Assembly (NCBI GenBank): GCA_964016885.1
Contig: OZ024741.1
Span: forward strand, 339,574,001 to 339,638,000
Direction: 5' to 3'
Length of the DNA stretch: 64,000 nt
Origin: Eledone cirrhosa
Taxonomy: Eukaryota
The notes beneath the pieces are model-generated. The model was not told the origin of the DNA. It did not search any database and was given only the letters and a program-made list of their open reading frames with translations. Position numbers and translations under genes: made by a program. Positions 3,647-59,100 of the stretch are shown here, piece after piece. Numbering within the stretch: position 1 is the first letter of the stretch; each line of letters starts with the position of its first letter.

Positions 3647-3951
3647 TGTGTGTGCAATTAATAAATTAACAATACATTGAGAAAGGTGGTGCAAATTAAA
3701 CAGTAAATATAATAGAACAAGTGAAGAGTAAAGTAAGAATGACGAAACAAAACACTATTCGTTACCTTATATTTCATATTTCAAACTTAGAACCACCTCT
3801 TTAGCAAATGTAGAACAATCAGAGCGTCATCTTCTTACGAATTGTCTTCATTTGATAAAAAGTTGCTGGCCTAGAAATATGAAATATGGAATAAAAACTA
3901 TTGTTTTATCGTGTCATTCTTACTTAATTCCACCTGGTTTCATTATTACAG

Positions 3952-4360
3952 ATCCTTACGGGGTCGATAAAATAAAGTACCAGTAATGTACTGAGATAAT
4001 TGCTGGCCTTGTGCCAAAAAGTAGAAACAATTATTACAGAGGGCGGTGAATTGGCAGTATCGGTAGAGGGTCGGACATGCTTTCCAGCACAGTTACGTCC
4101 CTTTACGATCTGAGTTCAAATCCCGCCGAGGTTAACTTTGCCTTTCATCCTTACGGGGTAGATAAAATAAAGTACCAGTAATGTACTGGGTAATTGCTGG
4201 CCTTGTGCCATAAGTAGAAACAATTATTACAGTTACGGCCCTTTATGGTCTGAGTTCAAATCCCGTCGAGGTTAACTTTGCCTTTCATCCTTACGAGGTC
4301 GATAAAATAAAGTACCAGTAATGTACTGGCCTTGTGCCAAAAGTAGAAACAATTATTATA
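3952..4360 (+). mobile_element. Tandem/nested tRNA-derived SINE copies
   Basis: A-box-like TGGCAGTATCGG, B-box GAGTTCAAATCC, core GCCTTTCATCCTTACGGGGTCGATAAAATAAAGTACCAG, tail AGTAGAAACAATTATTA; one full copy (about 4041-4230) plus two partial copies. Confidence 0.85.
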
Positions 4361-6244: not shown

Positions 6245-7360
6245 ATCACTGGAATTCTATAAGAATCCAGCTTCTATAAATCTTGGCGGACGCGAAGGGA
6301 TATGCAATCTTGATAACCGCTAACGAGCGAGAAACAGCTTTGTTTTTGCCGAAAAATTTGAAGCAATTACTAACAAAGGCAAAGTTTGACCTTAACAACA
6401 AAGACCAATCATTCACTGTATCTAAATGCAATGATAGTCGATGTGACACATGTCAATCCATACACACCGGTCAATATATGAACACAAAAACTGGATAATA
6501 TTCCCAAATGCAAATATGAACTGCAAAAGCAGAAATCTAATTTACTGCATTAAATGCCCGAATTGTGAAGAACTATATGTCGGTCAAACTGGAAATGTAC
6601 TATCGGAACGTGCACGGGTGCACCGACAGCAAATCAGAGACCTAAATGTCCGTCAGATACCCTGAGTAACCATCTAGCAACATGTGGTCAGAAAATATTT
6701 ATAATATTTCCATTCTACAAATTACACAGCCCAAGTGAAATCAAGAGAAAAATTAAAGAAAAGAATTTTACTGATAAATTCCAACCCAAGCTAACTGAAC
6801 AATAATAATGCTTAGGGGTATTACTCCTACTATGACTACGCCTACGACCATGTCGACTACCACAACTAACAACAACAACAACAACAACAATAATAATAAT
6901 AAAAGTGATGTTGATGGTGATGATTACTGAAGACTTTTTTATAAAAACCCTAGAAAATGCTATTTTCCTAATTTCTAAAAATAGCAAAACAATTGATGCT
7001 TTGGATAGGGTCAAATAGAAGTCGTTAGACATGCTCAACCAACCGTGACCCCTAAACCAATCAGCTTTAGTCATCCAGTGAAACTACACACCGATTGGTC
7101 GAAATACAGTTTGCAAAACTTAGCATTCTGTAGCCGCTTTTCACTGTATATAAGGCACAAAATTTACCCATCTCATTACAGTTGAAAATTGCAAACTTGA
7201 CTGTGACCCCAGAATGTGAACCTGAAGATTGCGAAAGCATGAAAGTACTTGTTCAATTAACATTTAATATTCTACCATACTATTTCATTCTAATACCATT
7301 ATAATTTTAAAGGATTGTAAATAAAACGAGTAAATCAGACAGAGTTGGAATTCCTTTTAT
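6245..7360 (+). mobile_element. Second Penelope-like element fragment (GIY-YIG end and 3' region)
   Basis: PKNLKQLLTKAKF...CNDSRCDTC and NCKSRNLIYCIKCPNCEELYVGQTG...RARVH across frameshifts/stops; hammerhead at 7217-7255; ends in (TA)n. Confidence 0.85.
7217..7255 (+). ncRNA. Minimal type I hammerhead motif (PLE-associated)
   Basis: TGAAC-CTGAAGA-T-TGC gaaa GCA-T-GAAA-GTAC-TT-GTTCA; stem I TGAAC/GTTCA; palindromic stem III AGTACT. Confidence 0.7.
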
Positions 7361-7468: not shown

Positions 7469-7539
7469 GTGTATATATATATATATATACACACACTCAT
7501 ACGTGCATACATGCAACATGAATAGTTATATCAACTTAC

Positions 7540-9954
7540 GTTTTGCCTTGACGGTATTGCTGTCTGGATATGTAACGGTGAGATACAGTCATCACTCTCT
7601 GATTCACCTTCCTCCTGTACATCAATACAAGAGTCAGCAAGCTGCACATTCCAGGTAGTGTTCTTGTCATTGGTTAGCTCGGGTAATCTTATGTCGACCT
7701 GTGATACGGCTGTCAGAGGCAAGCATTTCAAACGTTTCCCTTCTCGGCGTCTGTTTCCCACATCTACGTTACTAGCACGTGAACGTCTTCTCCGGTCCTC
7801 TCTAGATATCAGACATATTGTGGCCGATACCACGACACAAACTGAACCAATCACAGCGACAATCACTATAACGACTAATAGATTTTTATGAATTTTAATA
7901 TTTGCGCCGATTTGAACTGCTGTTAATGTTTTAGATGTGGCATTATTGAACGGTAATACCAATGAAAGGTTTGTCACTGTATGTAATACAGGGCTGCCGC
8001 CGTCTTTGACTTTTATCTGTAGACTATGTGTCCTGGCATCATTTTCTAAAGGAACGCGACTAAACGTTAATTGGCCATTGTAACGATTTAGTAAGAATAA
8101 CTTGCCTTCATTTCCTTGAATTATTTCATACGTTAGAAAGGCGTTCTTTCCAATGTCTTTGTCTGTGGCCATGAGAATAGTGATGTTTCTATCATTCTGT
8201 GCTCGATAATAGGTATTCATGAAGAAGGGGTTAACACTTGGGAAGGTAAAATAAGGAGCATTGTCATTTTCATCCATGATTTCAATGGTGACACTAACTG
8301 TATTATTTAGCGAAGGTACTCCAAGGTCCTTGACAAAAACTCGCAAATGATAAATATCTTGTTGTTCACGGTCTAGTGATAACCTTGTAGATATGTACCC
8401 ATAACTAGTGATCTGGAAAGGCGAGAATGTTCCATTGAGATTCAACAGAGAATAAGAAAGTCTACCTCCAGCTCTCATGTCTGGATCTGAAGCATTAACA
8501 AAACCAACAGGAAAGTTACTGTTCTGGTTTTCATAGGTCCAAAATCTAAAAGATTTTCTGGAAAATCTTGGAGGTACATCGTTGACGTCTATTACACGTA
8601 TGAAAAATTTAGTCTTGGACCACAAAGGCGGCGAACCTCTGTCCTTGCAAGCTACTGTGACGTTATAGCTATCCTTTGTTTCACGGTCGAGTGGGTTTTT
8701 AATAATAATTTTGTATTTTTTCTTACCGTGATTCTGCAAATGGAAGCTGTTGTGACGAAGTGTACAAACTACTTCTCCGTTTAACCCACTATCGGTGTCT
8801 GTCACTTCAACATAACCAATGAAGTTCCCCACCTTGATAGCTTCTGAAATAGCTGCTATATTATAAGCTGCTGTAGAACCTCTTAAGGTAACCAATATTT
8901 TGGGGTAGTGATTCTCAGTGTTTACAATCTTAACCAAGACATCAGCAAATGAACTGCGGGGAGGGTGACCACCGTCGACTGCTTGCACGAATAATTTAAA
9001 GTAAATGTTTTTATTTGGTACCAGTTTCTTTATAAGGTAAATAATTCCGGTTGTTTTATTTAGACTGAAATAGTCTCTTGTCAGATTTGAAGTCTGTGTA
9101 GTAAAATAATATGTAAGCTGAGCATTTTCACCAATATCGGCATCAGAAGCTAATAGTCTGACGATAAATTCTCCAGGTAATACAACTTTGTTGATTAGAA
9201 CATTATAAGCATCTGGTTGGAATATTGGAGTATTATCATTTTCATCTGTAACTGTTATTTGGACATGAAGAAACGTACGTTTCGGGGGTTTTCCTCCATC
9301 TTCAGCAACAACCTTAAGATAATATGTATCTTTGGTTTCCCTATCGAGTTTCACTTCGACAACGATATTTATCACAGAAATTCCATTTACGGTATTTACC
9401 ACAGAGAGAGAGAAATGTTTATCTGCATTATTGTGTAAATAATAAGTAATATTTGAGTTTAAAGCACCAATGTCCCTGTCGATGGCATTGGGAATGGAGT
9501 GGTGAGTTCCTTTTCGATCTCCTTCAGAAAAATTGAGGTATATTTTTTCGCGAATAAATTCAGGCCTACAGTCATTGATGTCTAGTACTATGACTTTTAC
9601 CTTCAATATGTCCATAAATAACTGACCATTCTTGATAGCTATGTTGACTGTTAAGAAACATTCTGTGTTCTGTTCACACAATGCTTCAGAGTCTATGGTT
9701 TGGCTGGTAAAAAGTTTTCCAGTAAACTCTGTTACATTAAGCAATGATGTATTTTCGTCTGTTTCTACATCTTCTAGCAAACTGAATCGAATCTGGATCC
9801 TATCCTTTACGGATAGCTTTGCAAAAATGTGTGAGTCCTTAGCGATATCTCCTAAATGTGTACCCGGGGGTTTACCTTCTTCAACCGAGTAAACAAGGTC
9901 CACACATGTGCAACTTTGAATCACATAAAAGAAAAGAGACATTTTAAACAGCAT
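7540..9954 (-). CDS. Protocadherin, large coding exon (signal peptide, 6 cadherin repeats, TM, start of cytoplasmic tail)
   Basis: ORF 7531-10149 with DINDCRP, LDRE, DENDNTP, DADIGENA, DVNDVPP and DENDNAP motifs; TM LLVVIVIVAVIGSVCVVVSATICLI; likely start MLFKMSLFFYVIQSCTC (ATG 9954; upstream ATGs possible). Splice donor AAC|GTAAGT at 7540/7539; polypyrimidine-CAG acceptor puts the exon start at 10225. Confidence 0.93.
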
Positions 9955-10274
9955 TTTGTTCGTCTGTATCAGAGCAACAAAATGTCGCAGAAATGCCCTA
10001 CAGATGTTTATCCAGGTCATAAAAACTGTATAACGTACTATTGTCTGACATAGGTGTGGACAGATGACAACTGTTTCGCATTCTTCTGGTCTCATCATAG
10101 CTGCAATGACATATCGTGCGAACATCCCGCATAGATTCGGCTTCATCATAGCTATGACGTGTCGTTCTACTTACATCTAATCGCATCATATGGAAGACAT
10201 GTCGTAACATAGTCATATATTACACCTGGAACTGGAAGGAAAGGAAAGAAATAGAATGAATATAAGTAAATTGA

Positions 10275-34288: not shown

Positions 34289-35046
34289 ATGAATGTACCA
34301 CATTTGCCCGCCTTTACTGGAAAACCTAAGATGTGGTTTGCCCAGTTACAGGCGTATTTTACGGTCTGTAAGACCGAATCTGACCAGCGCCTCGCTGTAC
34401 TGATTAGCGGCCTTCCCCCTAATCTAGCAGATTCGGTCCAAGACCTAATTACAGACCCCCCCCCTCTGACTTGACGTATGAGTTTTTGAAGGGCGAGATT
34501 TTGAGGAGGAATTGTAAGTCGGTAGAGAGTCGTTTTCGGTCACTGATCGAGGACGAACGATTAGGTGACAGGACCCCTACCGCTTTTCTCCGGCATTTGC
34601 GGGATTTGAGCGATTCCCAAGATCAGGATAGCCCTTTCCTGAAGCAATTGTTCTTCTCTCGCCTACCTCAAGAGGTACAGGCGATCCTAGCCCATATGCT
34701 AGAGGTGAATACCCTGGATCACATTGCTGTCTCTGCTGACAAAATTGTAGAGGTGACGAAGTACGTTGCTTCCTCTTCTCTTCCTCAATCACGCTCATCA
34801 GCGTCTGATGACAAATTAATCACCACTATGGAAGCCATGACTCGTCAAATGGCGGAGTTGTGCACGGAATTCAGGTCCTTTGGACGGCAGAGGAGCCGCT
34901 CACGACGTTATTCAACTTCTCGCCACCGTAGCCCTTCCAACACACCAGGAACAACATATTGTTATTACCATGAAAGATATGGTAAAAAAGCCGCCCGTTG
35001 TAGGCCTCCTTGTGCTTACGAGGGAAAAGACGACCAGAGTCACTAA
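34289..35046 (+). CDS. Gypsy gag (frameshift in C9 tract at about 34456-34464)
   Basis: LPAF...PKMWFAQL...[13 protein letters not shown]...[18 protein letters not shown] split over two frames. Confidence 0.8.
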
Positions 35047-38000
35047 CGGCGGATAGTGCGCTCTGCGAAACAACATCTAACCGCCACTTTTTCATTGAGG
35101 ACCTGCTGTCAGGTAGAGCTTTTCTGGTTGACACAGGTGCAGCTTGTTCCGTATGGCCTGTGTGTTGTATGAAGGAGCCTCCCCCTGAGACGCCTATTGA
35201 GTTGCAGGCAGTAAATTGTTCGCCGATTCGAACTTTCGGACAAATCTCGTTACCTTTGCAGTTTCGTAATCTGCGGCGCGAGTTTAAATGGATATTTACT
35301 GTCGCTGCCTTGCCGTATCCGATTCTAGGCGCGGATTTTCTCCACCATTTTTCATTGACGGTGGACCTTCGTGGTAAACGCCTAATTGATGGCATCACGG
35401 GATTAACTGTTGTTGGCAAGGCAGCAGGAGTTCCAACGGTTAGCCCGATATTTTTTCTTGCTAACACCGGTGATCCTTTCCATGCGTTGTTGAACTCGTT
35501 CCCGCAACTGACACAGGGGAATTTTCGATTTGATGAACCTACTCATACCACGGAGCACTTCATATCTACAACTGGTGCTCCCGTTTTCTCTCGCCCTCGT
35601 CGCTTGCCTCCGGACAAACTCAAAGCAGCACGATCAGAATTTGATCATATGCTGCAAATGGGGATTATTCGTCCGTCCACGAGCCCGTGGGCGTCCCCAT
35701 TGCACATGGTACCGAAAGCGAATGGCGATTGGAGACCTACTGGAGATTATCGACGCCTGAATTCGATAACGGTACCGGACCGTTATCCTATCCCTCATCT
35801 GCAAGACTTTGCGTCTTCGTTGCAGGGATGCAAGATATTCTCCAAACTGGATTTAATTCGTGCGTACCATCAAATTCCTGTCCATAAAAGTGACATTCGA
35901 AAAACGGCTATAGTTACGCCATTTGGGTCTTTCGAGTTTTTGACTATGCCGTTCGGATTAAGGAATGCCGCTAGTACTTTTCAGCGGTTTATGGATGAGG
36001 TTACTCGCGGCCTCGATTTCGTCTATACCTATATTGACGATCTGCTCATTGCTAGTTCTTCTCCAGAGCAGCATACGTACCATTTGAACCTTCTTTTCCG
36101 CCGATTGAAGGCGTATAACGTGCAGCTTAATGCACCCAAATGTGTTTTTGGTGCTGAGTCACTGACTTTCTTGGGTCACGTCATCGATGCTGACGGAATT
36201 CGACCCCGGCCTGAGCGAGTTAAGGTCATAGAGGATTTGCCTCCACCGACCTCACTACGTCAGTTACGCCAGTTCTTAGGTCTGGTTAACTTTTATAGGC
36301 GTTTCGTGCCAAATTATGCCAAGTTGCTTTTCTCCCTGACAGAAATTTTGAAAAATTGTCGGAGGAAGAACAAAGATATTTCTTTGACAGACACTCAACT
36401 TGCTGATTTTCAGCACGCCAAAACTGTTTTGGCTAATGCTTCGTTACTGACTCACCCGGTACCCGGTGCAAGGCTAACGCTTTGTGTTGATGCATCGGAT
36501 ATCGCTGTGGGCGCAGTACTACAGCAAAACATCAATGGTTACCAGCAACTGCTGGAGTTTTTTTCCAAAAAGCTAAATCCTGCTGAGACGTGCTACAGCA
36601 CCTTTGGAAGAGAGCTTTTAGCCATCTATTTGGCCGTGAAACATTTTTCACATGTGCTAGAGGGTAGACAATTTACTATCCTCACTGACCATAAACCATT
36701 GACTTTTGCTTTGAGAGCAAAGGCTGATAAATACTCGCCCAGAGAGACGAGACACCTTGATTTCATCTCGCAATATACGAGTGATATCCAGCACATTCCG
36801 GGTTCACTAAATACAGCGGCCGATGCTTTGTCCCGCTTACCCGTGACAGCGATCTTGTCACCCTCTGACATAGATCTGACTCGTTTGGCTGCGGATCAGC
36901 CTCCCCTTGAGTCACTGGATGTCACATCGCCCGAGTTTGCGAATTGCGAGATGAAATACTTGCCTCTGTCGACTGCAGTTGGCCAAATTCTCTGCGACGT
37001 CTCTTTGGACGTGCCTAGGCCCTTCGTTCCAGAGAATCATCGTCGGACCGTGTTTCTGGGATTACATTGTATCTCGCATCCAGGATCTTCTGCCACAGCA
37101 AAGCTCATATCAGCTAGATTTTTCTGGCCAAATATGAGGCGTGAAATTGCTGCTTGGTGCCATTCCTGCGTCGCTTGCCAGAGATCAAAGGTCCATCGAC
37201 ACGTCAAGGCTCCCCTGGGTACCTTTGCTAACCCAGATGCGCGTTTTTCGCATATTCATATTGACATAGTGGGACCTTGGCCTGTCAGCGATGGTTTTTC
37301 TTATCTACTTACCGTCATTGACCGTTTTTCGAGATGGCCTGAGGCCATCCCCTTGAAAAACATCACCGCGGAGACAACAGCACGTGCTCTTGTGTCTGGA
37401 TGGATCTCTCGTTATGGAGTTCCATCCACAATAACTACCGACCGTGGACGACAGTTCGAGTCGAGCCTTTTCCTCGAGCTGTCAAAAATAATTGGTGCTA
37501 AACGCATTCGAACTACGGCATACCATCCCGCTTCGAATGGTATGGTGGAGCGTTTTCACCGCCAACTGAAGGCCTCCTTAATGGCCTCAATGGACTCGGC
37601 GCATTGGAGCGAGTACCTCCCTATTGTGCTACTAGGGATTCGGTCAACGGTGAAGGTCGACTTTGGATTTTCACCGGCCGAAGTACTGTACGGTGCCCCT
37701 CTGACGTTGCCCGGGCAAATGCTTGCCCCTATCGATCTTGATGCCCAAGATCACGCTTCCTACGTGTCCCGTTTGCGCTCCTATTTCCAGGATTTGCCGC
37801 CAATGGACACTAGGAAACAAACTGTCAAGACTGCTGTCCCGAGGGATATTGCCTCGTGGACGCATGTCTTTGTAAGGAATGATACGGTGAAGCCCCCGCT
37901 CACACAGCCTTACACTGGACCTTACCGTGTCTTAGCGCGCTCGGCTAAGCATTTCACGTTAGATATTAAGGGGTCCAGGGTGACAGTTACATTAGACAGG

Positions 38001-38294
38001 CTTAAGCAGGCGCACCTTGATACGGACGCTGTGGTTCCTGATCCACGAACCCCTTCGCATTTGCCTGTTGAGCGAACGACTGTTCCTGATCCACCATCAT
38101 CGCCTGTCCCTACACCACCACCATCGCCACGTTACAAGACCACAACCCGTTCAGGTCGTAGGGTCCACTGGCCCAAAAAAACTTTGCAGCACCGTCTATA
38201 TTTAGACTATGTTAGCTGCACCTTTTCTTTGCCTCTGTGTTTCTGCTTTTTCTTTGCCTTGTTTTTTTTTATGCATGCATGTCGTTTTTTTTAA
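35010..38294 (+). CDS. Gypsy pol (protease, RT, RNase H, integrase)
   Basis: LVDTGA, DYRRLN, YIDD, VDASD, TDHKPL, H-x3-H...C-x2-C, IDIVG/TDRG/NGMVER, GPY. It is in the -1 frame to gag, with slippery G GGA AAA at 35022-35028. Confidence 0.95.
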
Positions 38295-39184
38295 AAACAT
38301 TTTTCAAATCCTTATTCTGGATTCAATTTTTGCTAGAGCGGATAGCTCCCCCTTGTTGCATTGTTCGCCATCTTACTCCACATGTGAGTAATGACATCGA
38401 TTTTCAATAGTTTGAAAATCTGGCTCGAGGTACTGTAGTAAGACGCCTCACGCTCCTTGATAGAACAACGCCGGTTGAGAACGCCAGAGAAAGAAAAGAC
38501 AGACAGCCACTGGAAAGCCGACGGATCACACGCCAGATACCAGCCTCTGTACAACACCATTGTTTGTGCTACAACAAAAAATAAACGTATATTTCATCTC
38601 TAATTTCTGCTGTTATTATGTCACTTGCATCTCGATAACATCTACAACTAATACTGCTAAATATGTATACAGACGTACAGTAGTATGTATATATATATAC
38701 ATACATGCACACATATATATATGTACGTATGGATTCACCAAACATTTATTATAATGCTCGGTGTGTTTGTAAACAAACATCCCGTATAAAGCCGCAGTGT
38801 CTCGCAACCATCGTTGCTCGTTTGTTCAAGACTGACAAAGGAACGCTGTACTAGTTTCAAGCTTGTTAGCTATCGTCAGCAACGTATACCTTCCTGCCAG
38901 ATTGTTGAACGTCCGAAAGTATATACTTTCCTTATGCATATTAACGGCTGAGTAGCCCAATTTGCATACGTACATACATATATCTATGTACGTATACATA
39001 CTTATATTTAAGTAACAGCCGTACTAAGAGTGGGAAATGAAATTTCGTTTCATTTTTTCCGTTTATCGTTTTCGGTGCACCCGGCCGATTAACCCACTCG
39101 ATATGCAAATTGGGCTACTCAGCCGTTAATATGCATAAGGAAAGTATATACTTTTGGACGTTCAACAATCTGGCAGGAAGGTAT

Positions 39185-39227
39185 ACGTTGCTGACGATAG
39201 CTAATAAGCTTGAAACTAGTACAGCGT
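39185..39227 (+). ncRNA. Type I hammerhead ribozyme (inverted twin at 38843-38885)
   Basis: ACGTTG-CTGACGA-T-AGCT aata AGCT-T-GAAA-CTAG-TA-CAGCGT. Confidence 0.85.
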
Positions 39228-40087: not shown

Positions 40088-40402
40088 ACGTTAGGTAATT
40101 CCGAAGAAAAGGCAAAGGAAAAAAGAGTGCTCGATGTATAGAACAGAGCTATTTATTTAGAAAGTGAACAACACAATATATAACTACTCCATTATCAAAA
40201 GTTTCTAGATCGTTCATCAGACAGAGATAACATCTCTATCTGATGAACGATCTAGAAATATATTACTATTGTCTGTCTAGGGTCCTGAAACCTTTGGTAA
40301 TGGAATAGTTATATATTGAGTTGTTCACTTTCTAATTAAATAGCGCTGTATTATACATAGAGCACTCTTTTTTCCTTTGCCTTTTCTTCGGAATTACCTA
40401 AC

Positions 40403-41474: not shown

Positions 41475-41552
<78 letters not shown>

Positions 41553-41563
<11 letters not shown>

Positions 41564-44500
41564 AATATAGACATAGAATATTCGAAAATATTCTGTATGT
41601 TTATAATAAACATTTTGAAGACCTAATCGCTATAGAATAGAATACGTCACGTATTACAATTAGATTCTCGATAAAAGCAAGGGAAGTAATCTACGCGTTT
41701 CATTCTTATTAGAAATCTTCAGGACTACATATCCAGTGCTTTTATCGAGAATGACACAGCTAGAGACTTATAGAATACTTAGCTGTGTACAGGAACTGGT
41801 TTGAAAGAGCGGTTGCCGGTCCGGCAGAAATTATAAATTGGAATAAATGCTCTGAAATAGCGATATATATGTGAATATAGACATAGAATATTCGAAAATA
41901 TTCTGTATGTTTATAATAAACATTTTGAAGACCTAATCGCTATAGAATAGAATACGTCACGTATTACAATTAGATTCTCGATAAAAGCAAGGGAAGTAAT
42001 CTACGCGTTTCATTCTTATTAGAAATCTTCAGGACTACATATCCAGTGCTTTTATCGAGAATGACACAGCTAGAGACTTATAGAATACTTAGCTGTGTAC
42101 AGGAACTGGTTTGAAAGAGCGGTTGCCGGTCCGGCAGAAATTATAAATTGGAATAAATGCTCTGAAATAGCGATATATATGTGAATATAGACATAGAATA
42201 TTCGAAAATATTCTGTATGTTTATAATAAACATTTTGAAGACCTAATCGCTATAGAATAGAATACGTCACGTATTACAATTAGATTCTCGATAAAAGCAA
42301 GGGAAGTAATCTACGCGTTTCATTCTTATTAGAAATCTTCAGGACTACATATCCAGTGCTTTTATCGAGAATGACACAGCTAGAGACTTATAGAATACTT
42401 AGCTGTGTACAGGAACTGGTTTGAAAGAGCGGTTGCCGGTCCGGCAGAAATTATAAATTGGAATAAATGCTCTGAAATAGCGATATATATGTGAATATAG
42501 ACATAGAATATTCGAAAATATTCTGTATGTTTATAATAAACATTTTGAAGACCTAATCGCTATAGAATAGAATACGTCACGTATTACAATTAGATTCTCG
42601 ATAAAAGCAAGGGAAGTAATCTACGCGTTTCATTCTTATTAGAAATCTTCAGGACTACATATCCAGTGCTTTTATCGAGAATGACACAGCTAGAGACTTA
42701 TAGAATACTTAGCTGTGTACAGGAACTGGTTTGAAAGAGCGGTTGCCGGTCCGGCAGAAATTATAAATTGGAATAAATGCTCTGAAATAGCGATATATAT
42801 GTGAATATAGACATAGAATATTCGAAAATATTCTGTATGTTTATAATAAACATTTTGAAGACCTAATCGCTATAGAATAGAATACGTCACGTATTACAAT
42901 TAGATTCTCGATAAAAGCAAGGGAAGTAATCTACGCGTTTCATTCTTATTAGAAATCTTCAGGACTACATATCCAGTGCTTTTATCGAGAATGACACAGC
43001 TAGAGACTTATAGAATACTTAGCTGTGTACAGGAACTGGTTTGAAAGAGCGGTTGCCGGTCCGGCAGAAATTATAAATTGGAATAAATGCTCTGAAATAG
43101 CGATATATATGTGAATATAGACATAGAATATTCGAAAATATTCTGTATGTTTATAATAAACATTTTGAAGACCTAATCGCTATAGAATAGAATACGTCAC
43201 GTATTACAATTAGATTCTCGATAAAAGCAAGGGAAGTAATCTACGCGTTTCATTCTTATTAGAAATCTTCAGGACTACATATCCAGTGCTTTTATCGAGA
43301 ATGACACAGCTAGAGACTTATAGAATACTTAGCTGTGTACAGGAACTGGTTTGAAAGAGCGGTTGCCGGTCCGGCAGAAATTATAAATTGGAATAAATGC
43401 TCTGAAATAGCGATATATATGTGAATATAGACATAGAATATTCGAAAATATTCTGTATGTTTATAATAAACATTTTGAAGACCTAATCGCTATAGAATAG
43501 AATACGTCACGTATTACAATTAGATTCTCGATAAAAGCAAGGGAAGTAATCTACGCGTTTCATTCTTATTAGAAATCTTCAGGACTACATATCCAGTGCT
43601 TTTATCGAGAATGACACAGCTAGAGACTTATAGAATACTTAGCTGTGTACAGGAACTGGTTTGAAAGAGCGGTTGCCGGTCCGGCAGAAATTATAAATTG
43701 GAATAAATGCTCTGAAATAGCGATATATATGTGAATATAGACATAGAATATTCGAAAATATTCTGTATGTTTATAATAAACATTTTGAAGACCTAATCGC
43801 TATAGAATAGAATACGTCACGTATTACAATTAGATTCTCGATAAAAGCAAGGGAAGTAATCTACGCGTTTCATTCTTATTAGAAATCTTCAGGACTACAT
43901 ATCCAGTGCTTTTATAAGTCTCTAGCTGTGTCATTCTCGATAAAAGCACTGGATATGTAGTCCTGAAGATTTCTAATAAGAATGAAACGCGTAGATTACT
44001 TCCCTTGCTTTTATCGAGAATCTAATTGTAATACGTGACGTATTCTATTCTATAGCGATTAGGTCTTCAAAATGTTTATTATAAACATACAGAATATTTT
44101 CGAATATTCTATGTCTATATTCACATATATATCGCTATTTCAGAGCATTTATTCCAATTTATAATTTCTGCCGGACCGGCAACCGCTCTTTCAAACCAGT
44201 TCCTGTACACAGCTAAGTATTCTATAAGTCTCTAGCTGTGTCATTCTCGATAAAAGCACTGGATATGTAGTCCTGAAGATTTCTAATAAGAATGAAACGC
44301 GTAGATTACTTCCCTTGCTTTTATCGAGAATCTAATTGTAATACGTGACGTATTCTATTCTATAGCGATTAGGTCTTCAAAATGTTTATTATAAACATAC
44401 AGAATATTTTCGAATATTCTATGTCTATATTCACATATATATCGCTATTTCAGAGCATTTATTCCAATTTATAATTTCTGCCGGACCGGCAACCGCTCTT

Positions 44501-45706
44501 TCAAACCAGTTCCTGTACACAGCTAAGTATTCTATAAGTCTCTAGCTGTGTCATTCTCGATAAAAGCACTGGATATGTAGTCCTGAAGATTTCTAATAAG
44601 AATGAAACGCGTAGATTACTTCCCTTGCTTTTATCGAGAATCTAATTGTAATACGTGACGTATTCTATTCTATAGCGATTAGGTCTTCAAAATGTTTATT
44701 ATAAACATACAGAATATTTTCGAATATTCTATGTCTATATTCACATATATATCGCTATTTCAGAGCATTTATTCCAATTTATAATTTCTGCCGGACCGGC
44801 AACCGCTCTTTCAAACCAGTTCCTGTACACAGCTAAGTATTCTATAAGTCTCTAGCTGTGTCATTCTCGATAAAAGCACTGGATATGTAGTCCTGAAGAT
44901 TTCTAATAAGAATGAAACGCGTAGATTACTTCCCTTGCTTTTATCGAGAATCTAATTGTAATACGTGACGTATTCTATTCTATAGCGATTAGGTCTTCAA
45001 AATGTTTATTATAAACATACAGAATATTTTCGAATATTCTATGTCTATATTCACATATATATCGCTATTTCAGAGCATTTATTCCAATTTATAATTTCTG
45101 CCGGACCGGCAACCGCTCTTTCAAACCAGTTCCTGTACACAGCTAAGTATTCTATAAGTCTCTAGCTGTGTCATTCTCGATAAAAGCACTGGATATGTAG
45201 TCCTGAAGATTTCTAATAAGAATGAAACGCGTAGATTACTTCCCTTGCTTTTATCGAGAATCTAATTGTAATACGTGACGTATTCTATTCTATAGCGATT
45301 AGGTCTTCAAAATGTTTATTATAAACATACAGAATATTTTCGAATATTCTATGTCTATATTCACATATATATCGCTATTTCAGAGCATTTATTCCAATTT
45401 ATAATTTCTGCCGGACCGGCAACCGCTCTTTCAAACCAGTTCCTGTACACAGCTAAGTATTCTATAAGTCTCTAGCTGTGTCATTCTCGATAAAAGCACT
45501 GGATATGTAGTCCTGAAGATTTCTAATAAGAATGAAACGCGTAGATTACTTCCCTTGCTTTTATCGAGAATCTAATTGTAATACGTGACGTATTCTATTC
45601 TATAGCGATTAGGTCTTCAAAATGTTTATTATAAACATACAGAATATTTTCGAATATTCTATGTCTATATTCACATATATATCGCTATTTCAGAGCATTT
45701 ATTCCA

Positions 45707-45708
<2 letters not shown>
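41553..45708. mobile_element. 310-bp hammerhead-containing tandem array (retrozyme-like) with central inversion
   Basis: GTGAATATAG recurs at 41561+310n up to 43731; orientation flips at 43913-43915; about 7.6 + 5.8 units; HHR in every unit; (TA)n flanks. Confidence 0.92.
43933..44021 (+). ncRNA. Representative type I hammerhead of the 310-bp unit (14 copies)
   Basis: GTAGTC-CTGAAGA-T-TTCT aata AGAA-T-GAAA-CGCG-TA-GATTAC (43957-43999). Stem I is extended after an internal loop by a 16-bp helix ATTCTCGATAAAAGCA/TGCTTTTATCGAGAAT. Predicted cleavage after GUA at 43993. Confidence 0.88.
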
Positions 45709-45776
<68 letters not shown>

Positions 45777-45818
45777 ATGTATGTAGTATGTATATATATA
45801 CGATATATATATATATAT

Positions 45819-46595: not shown

Positions 46596-46777
46596 ATATA
46601 TATATATATATATGTCTGTGAGTGTGTGTATGTATGTATGTATGTCAGGTCGTTCGTCAACGCTACTCGTAACATGTAACCCAGTACAACCTGTGCATGG
46701 TCGGGTCGTCGGCGAATAAACCGGCAACTCCATTAAGCATGCTTCGTAACGAGGGGGATTTTGGACACAGTGCGTTA

Positions 46778-48057
46778 GCTGTGTAATAATACTGTTAACT
46801 GTGTAATAATACTGTTAATTGTGTAATACTATTGTTAATTGTGTAATACTATTGTTAATTGTGTAATAATACTGTTAACTGTGCAATAATACTGTTAACT
46901 GTGTAATAATACTTTTAACTGTGTAATAATACTGTTAGCTGTGTAATAATACTGTTAACTGTGTAATAATACTGTTAATTGTGTAATACTACTGTTAATT
47001 GTGTAATACTATTGTTAATTGTGTAATAATAATGTTAACTGTAATAATACTGTTAGCTGTGTAATAATACTGTTAGATGTGTAATACTACTGTTAACTGT
47101 GTAATAATACTGTTAACTGTGTAATAATACTGTTAGCTGTGTAATACTACTGTTAACTGTGTAATAATACTGTTAACTGTGTAATAATACTGTTAGCTGT
47201 GTAATACTACTGTTAACTGTGTAATAATACTATTAACTGTGTAATAATACTGTTAGCTGTGTAATAATACTGTTAGCTGTGTAATAATACTGTTAACTGT
47301 GTAATAATACTATTAACTGTGTAATAATACTATTAACTGTGTAATACTACTGTTAGCTGTGTAGTAATACTATTAACTGTATAATAATACTATTAACTGT
47401 GTAATAATACTATTAACTGTGTAATAATACTGTTAGCTGTGTAGTAATACTATTAACTGTATAATAATACTGTTAGGTGTGTAATAATACTGTTAGCTGT
47501 GTAGTAATACTATTAATTGTGTAATAATACTGTTAGCTGTGTAATAATACTGTTAACTGTGTAATAATACTATTAACTCTGTAATAATACTATTAACTGT
47601 GTAATAATACTGTTAGCTGTGTAGTAATACTATTAACTGTATAATAATACTATTAACTGTGTAATAATACTATTAACTGTGTAATAATACTATTAACTGT
47701 GTAATAATACTATTAACTGTGTAATAATACTGTTATCTGTGTAGTAATATTAACTGTGTAATAATACTATTAACTGTGTAATAATACTATTAACTGTGTA
47801 GTAATACTATTAACTGTATAATAATACTGTTAGGTGTGTAATAATACTGTTAGCTGTGTAGTAATACTATTAAGTGTGTAATAATACTATTAACTGTGTA
47901 ATAATACTGTTAATTGTGTAATAATACTGTTAGCTGTGTAGTAATACTATTAACTGTGTAATACTACTGTTAGCTGTGTAATAATACTGTTAGCTGTGTA
48001 ATAATACTGTTATCTGGGTAATAATACTGTTAACTGTGTAATAATACTGTTAGCTGT
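46778..48057. repeat. 20-bp minisatellite (TGTGTAATAATACTGTTAAC)n
   Basis: About 64 diverged units. Confidence 0.95.
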
Positions 48058-49667: not shown

Positions 49668-52600
49668 GATAATATGTGCAGGCCTTGATAGTGGTATTTT
49701 CTGTATGATGCGTATATTTGTATGTCCTGGGGTACTCTACATAATATGTGCAGGCCTTGATAGTAGTATTTTCTGTATGATGTGTATATTTGTATGTCCT
49801 GGGGTACTCTACATTAATATGTGCAGGCCTTGATAGTGGTATTTTCTGTATGATGTGTATATTTGTATGTCCTGGGGTACTCTACATTAATATGTGCAGG
49901 CCTTGATAGTGGTATTTTCTGTATGATGTGTATATTTGTATGTCCTGGGGTACTCTACATTAATATGTGCAGGCCTTGATAGTAGTATTTTCTGTATGAT
50001 GCGTATATTTGTATGTCCTGGGGTACTCTACATAATATGTGCAGGCCTTGATAGTAGTATTTTCTGTATGATGTGTATATTTGTATGTCCTGGGGTACTC
50101 TACATTAATATGTGCAGGCCTTGATAGTGGTATTTTCTGTATGATGTGTATATTTGTATGTCCTGGGGTACTCTACATTAATATGTGCAGGCCTTGATAG
50201 TGGTATTTTCTGTATGATGCGTATATTTGTATGTCCTGGGGTACTCTACATAATATGTGCAGGCCTTGATAGTAGTATTTTCTGTATGATGTGTATATTT
50301 GTATGTCCTGGGGTACTCTACATTAATATGTGCAGGCCTTGATAGTGGTATTTTCTGTATGATGTGTATATTTGTATGTCCTGGGGTACTCTACATTAAT
50401 ATGTGCAGGCCTTGATAGTGGTATTTTCTGTATGATGTGTATATTTGTATGTCCTGGGGTACTCTACATTAATATGTGCAGGCCTTGATAGTGGTATTTT
50501 CTGTATGATGCGTATATTTGTATGTCCTGGGGTACTCTACATAATATGTGCAGGCCTTGATAGTAGTATTTTCTGTATGATGTGTATATTTGTATGTCCT
50601 GGGGTACTCTACATTAATATGTGCAGGCCTTGATAGTGGTATTTTCTGTATGATGTGTATATTTGTATGTCCTGGGGTACTCTACATTAATATGTGCAGG
50701 CCTTGATAGTGGTATTTTCTGTATGATGTGTATATTTGTATGTCCTGGGGTACTCTACATTAATATGTGCAGGCCTTGATAGTGGTATTTTCTGTATGAT
50801 GCGTATATTTGTATGTCCTGGGGTACTCTACATAATATGTGCAGGCCTTGATAGTGGTATTTTCTGTATGATGCGTATATTTGTATGTCCTGGGGTACTC
50901 TACATAATATGTGCAGGCCTTGATAGTGGTATTTTCTGTATGATGTGTATATTTGTATGTCCTGGGGTACTCTACATAATATGTGCAGGCCTTGATAGTG
51001 GTATTTTCTGTATGATGTGTATATTTGTATATCCTGGGGTACTCTACATAATATGTGTAGACCTTAATAGTGGTATTTTCTGTATGATGCGTATATTTGT
51101 ATGTCCTGGGGTACTCTACATAATATGTGTAGACCTTAATAGTGGTATTTTCTGTATGATGCGCATATTTGTATGTCCTGGGGTACTCTACATAATATGT
51201 GTAGACCTTAATAGTGGTATTTTCTGTATGATGCGTATATTTGTATGTCCTGGGGTACTCTACATTAATATGTGTAGACCTTAATAGTGGTATTTTCTGT
51301 ATGATGCGCATATTTGTATGTCCTGGGGTACTCTACATAATATGTGTAGACCTTAATAGTGGTATTTTCTGTATGATGTGTATATTTGTATGTCCTGGGG
51401 TACTCTACATAATATGTGTAGACCTTAATAGTGGTATTTTCTGTATGATGCGCATATTTGTATGTCCTGGGGTACTCTACATAATATGTGTAGACCTTAA
51501 TAGTGGTATTTTCTGTATGATGTGTATATTTGTATGTCCTGGGGTACTCTACATAATATGTGCAGGCCTTGATAGTGGTATTTTCTGTATGATGCGTATA
51601 TTTGTATGTCCTGGGGTTCTCTACATTAATATGTGCAGGCCTTGATAGTGGTATTTTCTGTATGATGTGTATATTTGTATATCCTGGGGTACTCTACATA
51701 ATATGTGTAGACCTTAATAGTGGTATTTTCTGTATGATGCGTATATTTGTATGTCCTGGGGTACTCTACATAATATGTGTAGACCTTAATAGTGGTATTT
51801 TCTGTATGATGCGCATATTTGTATGTCCTGGGGTACTCTACATAATATGTGTAGACCTTAATAGTGGTATTTTCTGTATGATGTGTATATTTGTATATCC
51901 TGGGGTACTCTACATAATATGTGCAGGCCTTGATAGTGGTATTTTATGTATGATGTGTATATTTGTATGTCTTGGGGTACTCTACATAATATGTGTAGAC
52001 CTTAATAGTGGTATTTTCTGTATGATGCGCATATTTGTATGTCTTGGGGGTATTCTACATAATATGTGTAGACCTTAATAGTGGTATTTTCTGTATGATG
52101 CGTATATTTGTATGTCCTGGGGTACTCTACATAATATGTGTAGACCTTAATAGTGGTATTTTCTGTATGATGCGTATATTTGTATGTCCTGGGGTACTCT
52201 ACATAATATGTGTAGACCTTAATAGTGGTATTTTCTGTATGATGCGCATATTTGTATGTCTTGGGGGTATTCTACATAATATGTGTAGACCTTAATAGTG
52301 GTATTTTCTGTATGATGCGTATATTTGTATGTCCTGGGGTACTCTACATAATATGTGTAGACCTTAATAGTGGTATTTTCTGTATGATGCGTATATTTGT
52401 ATGTCCTGGGGTACTCTACATAATATGTGTAGACCTTAATAGTGGTATTTTCTGTATGATGCGTATATTTGTATGTCCTGGGGTACTCTACATAATATGT
52501 GCAGGCCTTGATAGTGGTATTTTCTGTATGATGCGTATATTTGTATGTCCTGGGGTACTCTACATAATATGTGCAGGCCTTGATAGTGGTATTTTCTGTA

Positions 52601-52922
52601 TGATGCGTATATTTGTATGTCCTGGGGTACTCTACATAATATGTGTAGACCTTAATAGTGGTATTTTCTGTATGATACGTATATTTGTATGTCCTGGGGT
52701 ACTCTACATAATATGTGTAGACCTTAATAGTGGTATTTTCTGTATGATGCGTATATTTGTATGTCCTGGGGTACTCTACATAATATGTGTAGACCTTAAT
52801 AGTGGTATTTTCTGTATGATGCGTATATTTGTATGTCCTGGGGTACTCTACATATGTGCAGGCCTTGATAGTGGTATTTTCTGTATGATGTGTATATTTG
52901 TATGTCCTGGGGTATTCTACAT
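49668..52922. repeat. 72/73-bp satellite
   Basis: Unit ATAATATGTGCAGGCCTTGATAGTGGTATTTTCTGTATGATGCGTATATTTGTATGTCCTGGGGTACTCTAC, about 45 copies; degenerate units continue to about 53290. Confidence 0.95.
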
Positions 52923-55962: not shown

Positions 55963-56043
55963 GAAGAGAGTCTTGATGTTTCGGACACTAACCTTTCATC
56001 AGAAGAGAGTCTTAATGTTTCGGACACTAGCCCTTCATCAGAG
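55963..56043 (-). ncRNA. Two tandem minimal hammerhead motifs (39-nt period)
   Basis: Minus strand: CTGATGA-A-GGGC tagt GTCC-GAAACATTAAGA...CTGATGA-AAGGT tagt GTCC-GAAACATCAAGA. Confidence 0.65.
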
Positions 56044-56778: not shown

Positions 56779-59100
56779 TATCGTAGACATACTGGGCACA
56801 TTCGAGATTATTATAGATATACTGAGCACATTCGAGAACATCGTAGACATACTGGGAACTTTCGAGATTATTATAGAAATACTGAGCACATTCGAGAACA
56901 TCGTAGTCATACTGGGAACTTTCGAGATTAGTATAGATATACTGGGCACATTCGAGAACATCGTAGACATACTGGGAACTTTCGAGATTATTATAGATAT
57001 ACTGGGCACATTCGAGAACATCGTAGTCATACTGGGAACTTTCGAGATTATTATAGATGTACTGGGCATATTCGAGAACATCGTAATCATACTGGGCACA
57101 TTCGAGATTATTATAGATATACTGGTCATATTCGAGAACATCGTAGACATACTGGGAACTTTCTAGATTATTATAGATATACTGGGCACATTCGAGAACA
57201 TCGTAGACATACTGGGTACATTCGAGATTATTATAGATATACTGGGCACATTCGAGAACATCGTAGACATACTGGGTACATTCGAGATTATTATAGATAT
57301 ACTGGTCACATTCGAGAACATCGTAGTCATACTGGGCACATTCGAGATTATTATAGATATACTGAGCACATTCGAGAACATCGTAGACATACTGGGAACT
57401 TTCGAGATTATTATAGATATACTGGTCACATTCGAGAACATCGTAGACATACTGGGCACATTCGAGATTATTATAGATATACTGAGCACATTCGAGAACA
57501 TCGTAGACATACTGGGAACTTTCGAGATTATTATAGATATACTGGGCACATTCGAGAACATTGTAGACATACTGGGAACTTTCGAGATTATTATAGATAT
57601 ACTGGGCACATTCGAGAACATCGTAGTCATAATGGGCACATTCGAGATTATTATAGATATACTGAGCACATTCGAGAACATCGTAGTCATACTGGGCACA
57701 TTCGAGATTATTATAGATATACTGGGCACATTCGAGAACATCGTAGACATACTGGGAACTTTCGAGATTATTATAGATATACTGGGCACATTCGAGAACA
57801 TCGTAGACATACTGGGTACATTCGAGATTATTATAGATATACTGAGCACATTCGAGAACATCGTAGACATACTGGGCACATTCGAGATTATTATAGATAT
57901 ACTGAGAACATTCGAGAACATCGTAGTCATACTGGGCACATTCGAGATTATTATAGATATACTGAGCACATTCGAGAACATCGTTGACATACTGGGCACA
58001 TTCGAGATTATTATAGATATACTGGGCACATTCGAGAACATCGTAGTCATACTGGGCACATTCGAGATTATTATAGATATACTGAGAACATTCGAGAACA
58101 TCGTAGTCATACTGGGCACATTCGAGATTATTATAGATATACTGGGCACATTCGAGAACATCGTAGACATACTGGGCACATTCGAGATTATTATAGATAT
58201 ACTGAGAACATTCGAGAACATCGTAGTCATACTGGGCACATTCGAGATTATTATAGATATACTGGGCACATTCGAGAACATCGTAGACATACTGGGTACA
58301 TTCGAGATTATTATAGATATACTGAGCACATTCGAGAACATCGTAGTCATACTGGGAACTTTCGAGATTATTATAGATATACTGGGCACATTCGAGAACA
58401 TCGTAGTCATAATGGGCACATTCGAGATTATTATAGATATACTGAGCACATTCGAGAACATCGTAGTCATACTGGGCACATTCGAGATTATTATAGATAT
58501 ACTGGGCACATTCGAGAACATCGTAGACATACTGGGCACATTCGAGATTATTATAGATATACTGAGCACATTCGAGAACATCGTAGTCATACTGGGAACT
58601 TTCGAGATTATTATAGATATACTGGGCACATTCGAGAACATCGTAGTCATACTGGGCACATTCGAGATTATTATAGATATACTGAGCACATTCGAGAACA
58701 TCGTAGACATACTGGGAACTTTCGAGATTATTATAGATATACTGGGCACATTCGAGAACATCGTAGACATACTGGGAACTTTCGAGATTATTATAGATAT
58801 ACTGGGCACATTCGAGAACATCGTAGTCATACTGGGAACTTTCGAGATTATCGTAGACTGACTGGAAACATCCGAGACAATCGTAGATTGATCGGGAACA
58901 CCCGAGACCATCGTAGACAGCATGGGAACATACTGGAACATTGTAGACATATTGGGACCATCTGAGACTATCGTAGACAGCATGGGAGCATACTGGAACA
59001 TTGTAGACATATTGGGATAATCTGAGACTACCGTAGACAGCATGGGAACATACTGGAACCATCGTTAATATATTGGGAACATCCGAGACCATCGTAAACC
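56779..59100. repeat. 60-bp satellite (dimer of 30-bp subunits)
   Basis: About 35 units of ACTGGGCACATTCGAGAACATCGTAGACAT + ACTGGG(A/C)AC(T/A)TTCGAGATTATTATAGATAT, decaying after 58860. Confidence 0.95.

Follow-up and report, generated by a model that had tools for sequence, protein, structure and literature searches.

Two-armed insertions of a 310-nt retrozyme family in Eledone cirrhosa and their probable origin in Penelope-type priming

A 64,000-nt stretch of the Eledone cirrhosa genome (assembly GCA_964016885.1, contig OZ024741.1, positions 339,574,001 to 339,638,000 of the forward strand; hereafter the window, whose numbering is used throughout) holds an insertion made of two arrays of one 310-bp unit, which run outward from a common centre and end in (TA)n microsatellites. 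Judged by its sequence, the element is a metazoan retrozyme lacking long terminal repeats (non-LTR), a young, abundant, non-coding mobile element, and this insertion of it is very young. In the reading that we favour, at a probability of roughly 0.6, a reverse transcriptase (RT)-endonuclease of the Penelope-like element (PLE) type primed synthesis from both (TA)n ends on one reused monomer of this young 310-nt retrozyme, probably a circle. The parts of this reading differ in firmness: two-ended PLE-type priming on one template is highly probable, a monomer read repeatedly is the likely template, and this monomer may well have been a covalent RNA circle. Support comes from the layout of the family, the strict pairing of two kinds of outer ends, the random placement of the inner ends, an excess of microhomology where these meet, and the presence of one haplotype in both arms.

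Paired ends, central joins and haplotypes

Positions in the repeat are given as U followed by a number, with unit U defined as window 43913-44222 and hammerhead sense on the plus strand. One 27-mer of the family has 10,147 exact matches in the assembly, and the exact junctions of its two outer ends, termed site A and site B, occur 468 and 1,006 times, respectively. We fetched loci for 62 of the 468 A-end matches, 34 of the 1,006 B-end matches and 38 of the best similarity matches (some overlapping), and further loci by the hammerhead region (six) and by a variant (two). Of the 134 insertions of at least 90 bp examined, 14 were set aside because N or the limit of the fetched stretch truncated them. 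The 120 complete insertions comprise 99 with two divergent arms, 20 with a single arm (in some cases accompanied by a stub not long enough to be scored) and one complex case; none is convergent, and ten of the 14 incomplete insertions already show the divergent order, again with no convergent one. Two outward-pointing arms are the usual layout of the family, neither a one-off nor a chimera.

Every one of the 99 two-arm insertions combines one site A end (U193-220, modes 220 and 211) with one site B end (U231-253, modes 246 and 248). Since loci were chosen by one end, the pairing rule was tested on the other, non-selected end; if ends were independent at even odds, the chance of 99 such pairs out of 99 would be ~1e-30. 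The rule supports an inference made in an earlier sequence-only reading of this DNA, namely that both target ends primed synthesis. Outer ends continue into (TA)n in 190 of 198 cases. The apparent offset between the two sites, i.e., the tail, is 26-38 nt in 89 of the 99 insertions (modes 26, 35, 28 and 37), an overlap with (TA)n shortening it for U220 ends. The A arm has a median length of 840 bp and the B arm one of 1,036 bp, the longer arm is A in 44 insertions and B in 55, and the correlation between the two lengths is weak (rho 0.30); 18 of the 99 are at least as long as the insertion in the window. Other alternating AT runs (TATA or ATAT) within the unit do not serve as ends, therefore the choice of site does not come down to base pairing with (TA)n. 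The sequence-only reading had supposed chance priming in the style of L1, at ATATATAT on one side and AAT on the other; with the remaining TATA/ATAT runs unused, this gives way to two fixed family sites of a PLE-like kind.

The centre differs from locus to locus. The 198 inner ends are spread evenly over the unit (Kolmogorov-Smirnov p = 0.75), five of them lie no more than 4 nt from the predicted ribozyme cut (5.7 expected), and no single-unit insertion or deletion was found at the cut site in 89 two-arm loci; hence no template end is visible. Paired inner ends are at most 30 nt apart in 23 of the 99 loci, against 19.5 expected (p = 0.22). Of the 66 joins that have no inserted bases, 42 show microhomology of at least 2 nt, where 18.7% would be expected (p = 1e-15), in keeping with the microhomology join inferred earlier for the centre; the other 33 joins carry insertions, the longer of which match the unit. 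These observations fit a centre at which two independent complementary DNA (cDNA) ends were joined by microhomology and speak against self-priming as the rule.

Haplotypes, of which 105 loci carry 44, behave in the same way on both sides of the centre: in 89 two-arm loci, none of 16 multi-unit variants ever separates whole arms. The insertion in the window, with haplotype 55A, 65T, 249A, departs from the family majority at three positions. Its private marker base, 249A, has 14 exact matches genome-wide, 12 of them in this locus and the other two in single units on other haplotypes, and no other array in the assembly is fixed for it. The presence of 249A in all covering units points to one reused monomer template. 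Among 121 single-unit substitutions, 75 could be compared with the corresponding round in the opposite arm, and none of these is shared. The sister loci of one young sub-lineage are set apart by A30G, present in 36 of 36 monomers, or by A101G, present in 13 of 13; A30, A47 and A101 are predicted-paired sites, and changes at them recur on several haplotype backgrounds. The all-or-none A30G and A101G are the expected trace of one edited RNA copied many times, which we offer as a lead only. Single-unit T>C changes number 24 and A>G changes nine (p = 0.03 uncorrected, one of six pairs), a difference not used as proof.

Other loci illustrate what may befall these arrays. At G000:C1:97461509 (L167, L091) and G000:C1:36481957, arms are 45 and 27 units long and linked variants recur in them: retrozyme arms turning into satellite. 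At L180, the same small two-arm insertion with an identical junction stands at 3937-4183 and 6372-6618, 2.4 kb apart, likely through local duplication. A single A169T unit on contig C4 was considered as a donor and is not claimed: it is the innermost unit of its arm, without an upstream hammerhead. Runs X4, X5, X6, X10 and X17 belong to five other organism codes; in each, a single contig of unit length (340 nt in four runs, 280 nt in one) shows the family's common variants at low depth. The simplest reading is trace DNA of a high-copy repeat, and we do not take these contigs as evidence of circles or horizontal transfer.

The insertion in the window and its hammerhead

Nothing sets the locus apart within the family except its private base 249A, which is its main use (Table 1). 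There are no mismatches inside either arm, the ribozyme sense is directed outward in left and right arms alike, and the arms overlap by exactly TAT. At the left outer end, ATATATAT is common to the arm and the (TA)n flank; the right outer end reads TTCCAAT, then (AT)n, and lies 26 nt past the apparent site A end, which gives the right arm its tail. The sequence-only reading was exact in placing the flip of the array at a TAT microhomology, its claim of outward ribozyme sense is confirmed, and the two outer joins that it described, one through a unit sequence common with (TA)n and one via AAT, are those seen here. Its "4.1-kb palindrome" survives as the length of the insert (4,156 bp) and not as a perfect palindrome of that size: the perfect stem is 1,769 bp (42147-43915 against 43940-45708, with a 24-nt loop) and leaves 594 bp of the left arm unpaired in this register. 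Its figures of 7.6 and 5.8 stand as unit counts, which need not equal rounds of copying, since arms of at least 13 units show later expansion. The junction 24-mer occurs once across the 3.0-Gb assembly. The flanks are not mirror images, the left one being (TG)n(TA)n and the right one (AT)n(GT)n, and both insertion ends, inspected for a target site duplication, sit in (TA)n. Ribozyme-sense transcripts starting within the two arms would be identical rather than complementary, so that double-stranded RNA would presumably need read-through of the centre.

Table 1. Features of the two-armed insertion and its immediate flanks (window positions; strand "." where none applies).
Feature	Position	Strand	Basis
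Left flank, (TG)n then (TA)n target microsatellite	41476..41560	.	sequence
Left arm, 7.6 identical 310-bp units (U28 to U220), 2,363 bp; outer end = site A (U220)	41553..43915	-	
Hammerhead motif of the innermost left-arm unit (U45-87)	43856..43898	-	CTGAAGA at 43892 on minus; limits from unit register
Central join, TAT common to both arms	43913..43915	.	
24-nt spacer in the middle of the perfect inverted repeat (1,769 bp on either side)	43916..43939	.	
Right arm, 5.8 identical units (U1 to U246), 1,796 bp; outer end = site B (U246)	43913..45708	+	
16-bp inverted repeat (U21-36 with U94-109) around the hammerhead	43933..44021	+	
Predicted minimal type I hammerhead: 6-bp stem I, CUGAAGA, 4-bp stem II closed by U.U, GAAA, stem III palindrome ACGCGU	43957..43999	+	motif and fold
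Marker base A at U249 in each of the 12 units that cover it, left and right arm alike; family base C	44161..44161	+	
Right flank, (AT)n then (GT)n	45709..45818	.	

The unit is 310 bp long with a GC fraction of 0.33-0.34, within the ~150-450 bp and <50% GC expected of metazoan non-LTR retrozymes, and no open reading frame (ORF) of at least 150 aa lies within 41553-45708. Its motif order, GTAGTC-CTGAAGA-stem II-GAAAC-GC-GTA-GATTAC, is that of a type I hammerhead whose stem III is 2 bp within the palindrome ACGCGT and whose cut is predicted after GUA at 43993. The core, stems I and II and the palindromic stem III are present in 13 of 13 unit copies, and the predicted fold has z = -6.97 for an 89-nt segment (computed on the equivalent of the next unit) and z = -5.31 for the full unit. 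Rfam returned no match at its gathering score, hence the assignment of the hammerhead by motif and fold. Minimal hammerheads with a palindromic helix III work in dimers and are thought to be inactive in monomer circles, according to PMC4209133.

Elsewhere in the window, an 879-aa open frame at 7534-10170 (minus strand) with cadherin repeats and a Cadherin_2 domain resembles a protocadherin exon. Frames at 13181-16651 (-), 20870-25201 (+) and 35004-38294 (+) comprise two long RT frames of the long interspersed nuclear element (LINE) type, one with an endonuclease match, and one LTR-retrotransposon pol frame with RT, RNase H and integrase. Other hammerhead-like motifs, some in short inverted or tandem pairs, lie at 2497, 20618, 38879-39191, 40220-40240 and 56002-56041 and are probably other PLE ends; tandem arrays occupy 46774-48057 (20 bp), 49669-52922 (72 bp) and 56780-59096 (30/60 bp).

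Likeness to Penelope-like elements, retrozymes and L1

EN+ (endonuclease-positive) PLE insertions are described as having an inverted truncated copy with inverted pseudo-LTRs, a 30-40-nt tail at one end and AT-rich or (TA)n targets (PMC8557442; PMC3846280). The Poseidon protein cuts and extends both strands in vitro, and its RT has two adjacent internal start sites which bound the 30-40-nt tail (PMC11167929). The retrozyme insertions share with those of EN+ PLEs the head-to-head inverted, 5'-truncated copy (99 of 120 complete insertions), the tail at one end only, the AT-rich or (TA)n targets and the two adjacent start sites; they also share with PLEs the minimal hammerhead with a palindromic helix III (PMC4209133). 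They differ in that both arms are multimers of one 310-nt unit and, from an autonomous PLE, in that the element has no RT and GIY-YIG ORF. They differ, too, from the self-priming model of PMC3846280, the retrozyme data favouring two target-primed arms. In short, the element inserts like an EN+ PLE and is not itself an autonomous PLE.

The same genome contains coding PLEs. One that encodes GIY-YIG, L237, takes the shape of a two-arm inversion of 3.27 kb, one of whose arms has a further ~40 nt, and in its family four of seven ends carry the tail and three of seven stop at the shorter site. A non-coding repeat at L193 (2433-2864) is 76% identical to the unit over U140-251, has a different upstream sequence, and shows the same divergent two-arm layout with microsatellite flanks, which points to U140-253 as the probable recognised part of the unit. 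Several further observations concern these elements. A GIY-YIG PLE family whose 3' end carries a hammerhead, and terminates at either of two points ~40 nt apart, is represented by that end at window 7222 (+) and at L225, L226, L229, L235 and L237. L227:1489-5237 is a 3.7-kb inverted pair of RT and GIY-YIG frames, 97% identical, and L222 and L223 carry frames of 938 and 844 aa of the same family. Short elements at L227:685, L231:7573-7705 and L240:6198-6326 have a hammerhead close to that of the retrozyme family (same stem II region), those at L231 and L240 being small inverted pairs.

Metazoan non-LTR retrozymes were described by Cervera and de la Pena (2020; PMC7229834) and Li et al. (2026; bioRxiv 10.64898/2026.07.22.740005). 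Our family shares with them a tandem unit of ~300 bp with low GC and one type I hammerhead, the lack of coding capacity and the many dispersed copies. A route from circles to tandem copies was proposed in PMC4209133 and PMC7229834, and copying of circles into tandem cDNA by a PLE RT was proposed for retrozymes in PMC7229834 and 10.64898/2026.07.22.740005. As far as the accessible parts of these reports go, the published retrozymes are head-to-tail arrays only, presented without junction analysis, whereas the copies here are mostly divergent and two-armed, with strict pairing of two fixed ends and per-locus haplotypes. In the literature searched, which included few subscription journals, we found no paper on two-armed retrozyme insertions, the paired-end rule or marker-base evidence. 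Retrozymes and PLE inversions are already known; the paired-end rule and the monomer evidence were not met with in that literature.

A general twin-priming model accounts for inverted L1 insertions. Like the insertions described here, L1 twin priming involves both target ends as primers, RNA 3' directions that point outward and a central microhomology join (10.1101/2024.12.14.628481). The retrozyme insertions differ in having no poly(A) end, in starting on both sides at fixed internal sites, and in arms that copy the same sequence repeatedly, whereas L1 segments are adjacent and non-overlapping on one linear RNA. The locus is not an L1-type twin-primed insert.

Competing explanations, proposed mechanism and implications

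Several points weigh against the favoured reading or parts of it. Most of the sampled loci are on contig C1, and one end served as the main criterion of choice. No partner PLE with pseudo-LTR homology was found by blastn or a two-sequence profile among 50 GIY-YIG loci (of 150 scored, from 10,595 first-look candidates). The closing pair of stem II is U.U (A-U in a common variant) in place of the usual G10.1-C11.1; because of this and the lack of an Rfam match, the predicted ribozyme activity is unproven, and eight of nine Xenopus retrozyme dimers stayed uncut in vitro (10.64898/2026.07.22.740005). Distinct fixed A>G and T>C changes number 10 and six, with no clear excess. In the mosaic locus L163 (G000:C1:61293175), A47G is missing from four outer B-arm units and present in all others, for which editing during copying, a template switch or gene conversion are the options. 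In a rival version, the same two-ended PLE priming took place, but the RNA copied was long, linear and uncut, transcribed from a donor array whose homogeneity would account for the identical units. We regard this as unlikely. Poseidon uses uncut linear RNA in vitro and needs no ribozyme (PMC11167929), coding PLEs give the same two-arm layout, and the hammerhead is non-canonical. Homogeneous sub-lineages exist: A169T (46 genome-wide matches, mostly in four arrays) and A199G (358 matches) failed as private markers, and since both are common to several arrays, homogeneous donors exist; a 249A donor array could be missing from this assembly. One further single-unit case, at a locus with equal arm lengths, is mirrored. 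Against a linear transcript stand the uniqueness of the array fixed for 249A in the assembly, the 75 testable single-unit changes that are unmirrored, and the recurrent stem A>G changes, which affect all or no units of a locus with the exception of L163; moreover, homogeneous donors themselves require a monomer step at some stage.

The remaining explanations concern events after or outside priming from two ends. A short two-arm PLE-type insertion whose arms then grew by slippage or unequal crossover, with conversion between arms, is improbable: single-unit substitutions (121) face 16 multi-unit records, 10 of which are in single arms of at least 13 units, and both arms have at least two units in 45 of the 99 loci, yet differences are ~5 per 10,000 bases. 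In its favour, variants are repeated within arms of 13-45 units, which points to later DNA expansion, Li et al. (2026) lean to local amplification by unequal crossover (10.64898/2026.07.22.740005), and the locus in the window, having no internal differences, offers no direct test. Priming from one end followed by fold-back and self-copying of the cDNA (the model of PMC3846280, in which palindromic PLE junctions are so interpreted) would turn the 24-nt loop with TAT into the fold-back, and the inner ends at this locus are just 27 nt apart in unit position; across the 99 loci, the spacing of inner ends given above is close to expectation, either arm can exceed the other, and just 29 pairs are within 350 bp in length. 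Fold-back is largely refuted at the family level and is very improbable here. An assembly artefact, be it fold-back chimeric reads or repeat-copy collapse, is hardly credible. These were the two dangers named by the sequence-only reading, and no read or contig examined spans the junction, Logan contigs and a 1% Hi-C sample being uninformative; both are countered by unmirrored flanks, by outer ends that fall at a different fixed site for either arm in every one of the 99 loci, each with a distinct centre, by a haplotype unlike the family majority, and by 249A in all units where the family has C.

Under the favoured reading of two-ended PLE-type priming on a reused monomer, a donor array would be transcribed, neighbouring hammerheads would pair via the ACGCGU palindrome and release monomers, and these would be ligated into circles unable to form the dimer in cis. 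A PLE protein acting in trans would cut both strands within (TA)n; synthesis from one DNA end would begin at site B (U244-253), and synthesis from the other ~26-37 nt upstream, at site A (U207-220). Each end would then be extended past the unit boundary with strand displacement and stop at a random position, whereupon the two cDNA ends would join by microhomology (TAT at this locus) and the second strands would be filled in. Rather tentatively, one may picture a PLE protein dimer bound to a single covalently closed RNA of 310 nt at two sites, ~35 nt from each other, from which the two ends of the cut chromosome are extended simultaneously by rolling-circle reverse transcription. If so, each insertion would be a multi-pass record of one circle, including adenosine-to-inosine edits in its stems at A30, A47 and A101, and PLEs would make head-to-head inversions with a one-sided tail by default rather than by accident.

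The entry of animal retrozymes into genomes from RNA circles via PLE enzymes is proposed, and not yet demonstrated, in the accessible parts of the cited work, as is the way in which PLEs make inverted copies with a one-sided tail. With more than 1,000 near-identical insertions, a strict end rule and per-locus marker bases, the family makes both points testable by counting, and it defines RNA sites that may be used in an in vitro assay.
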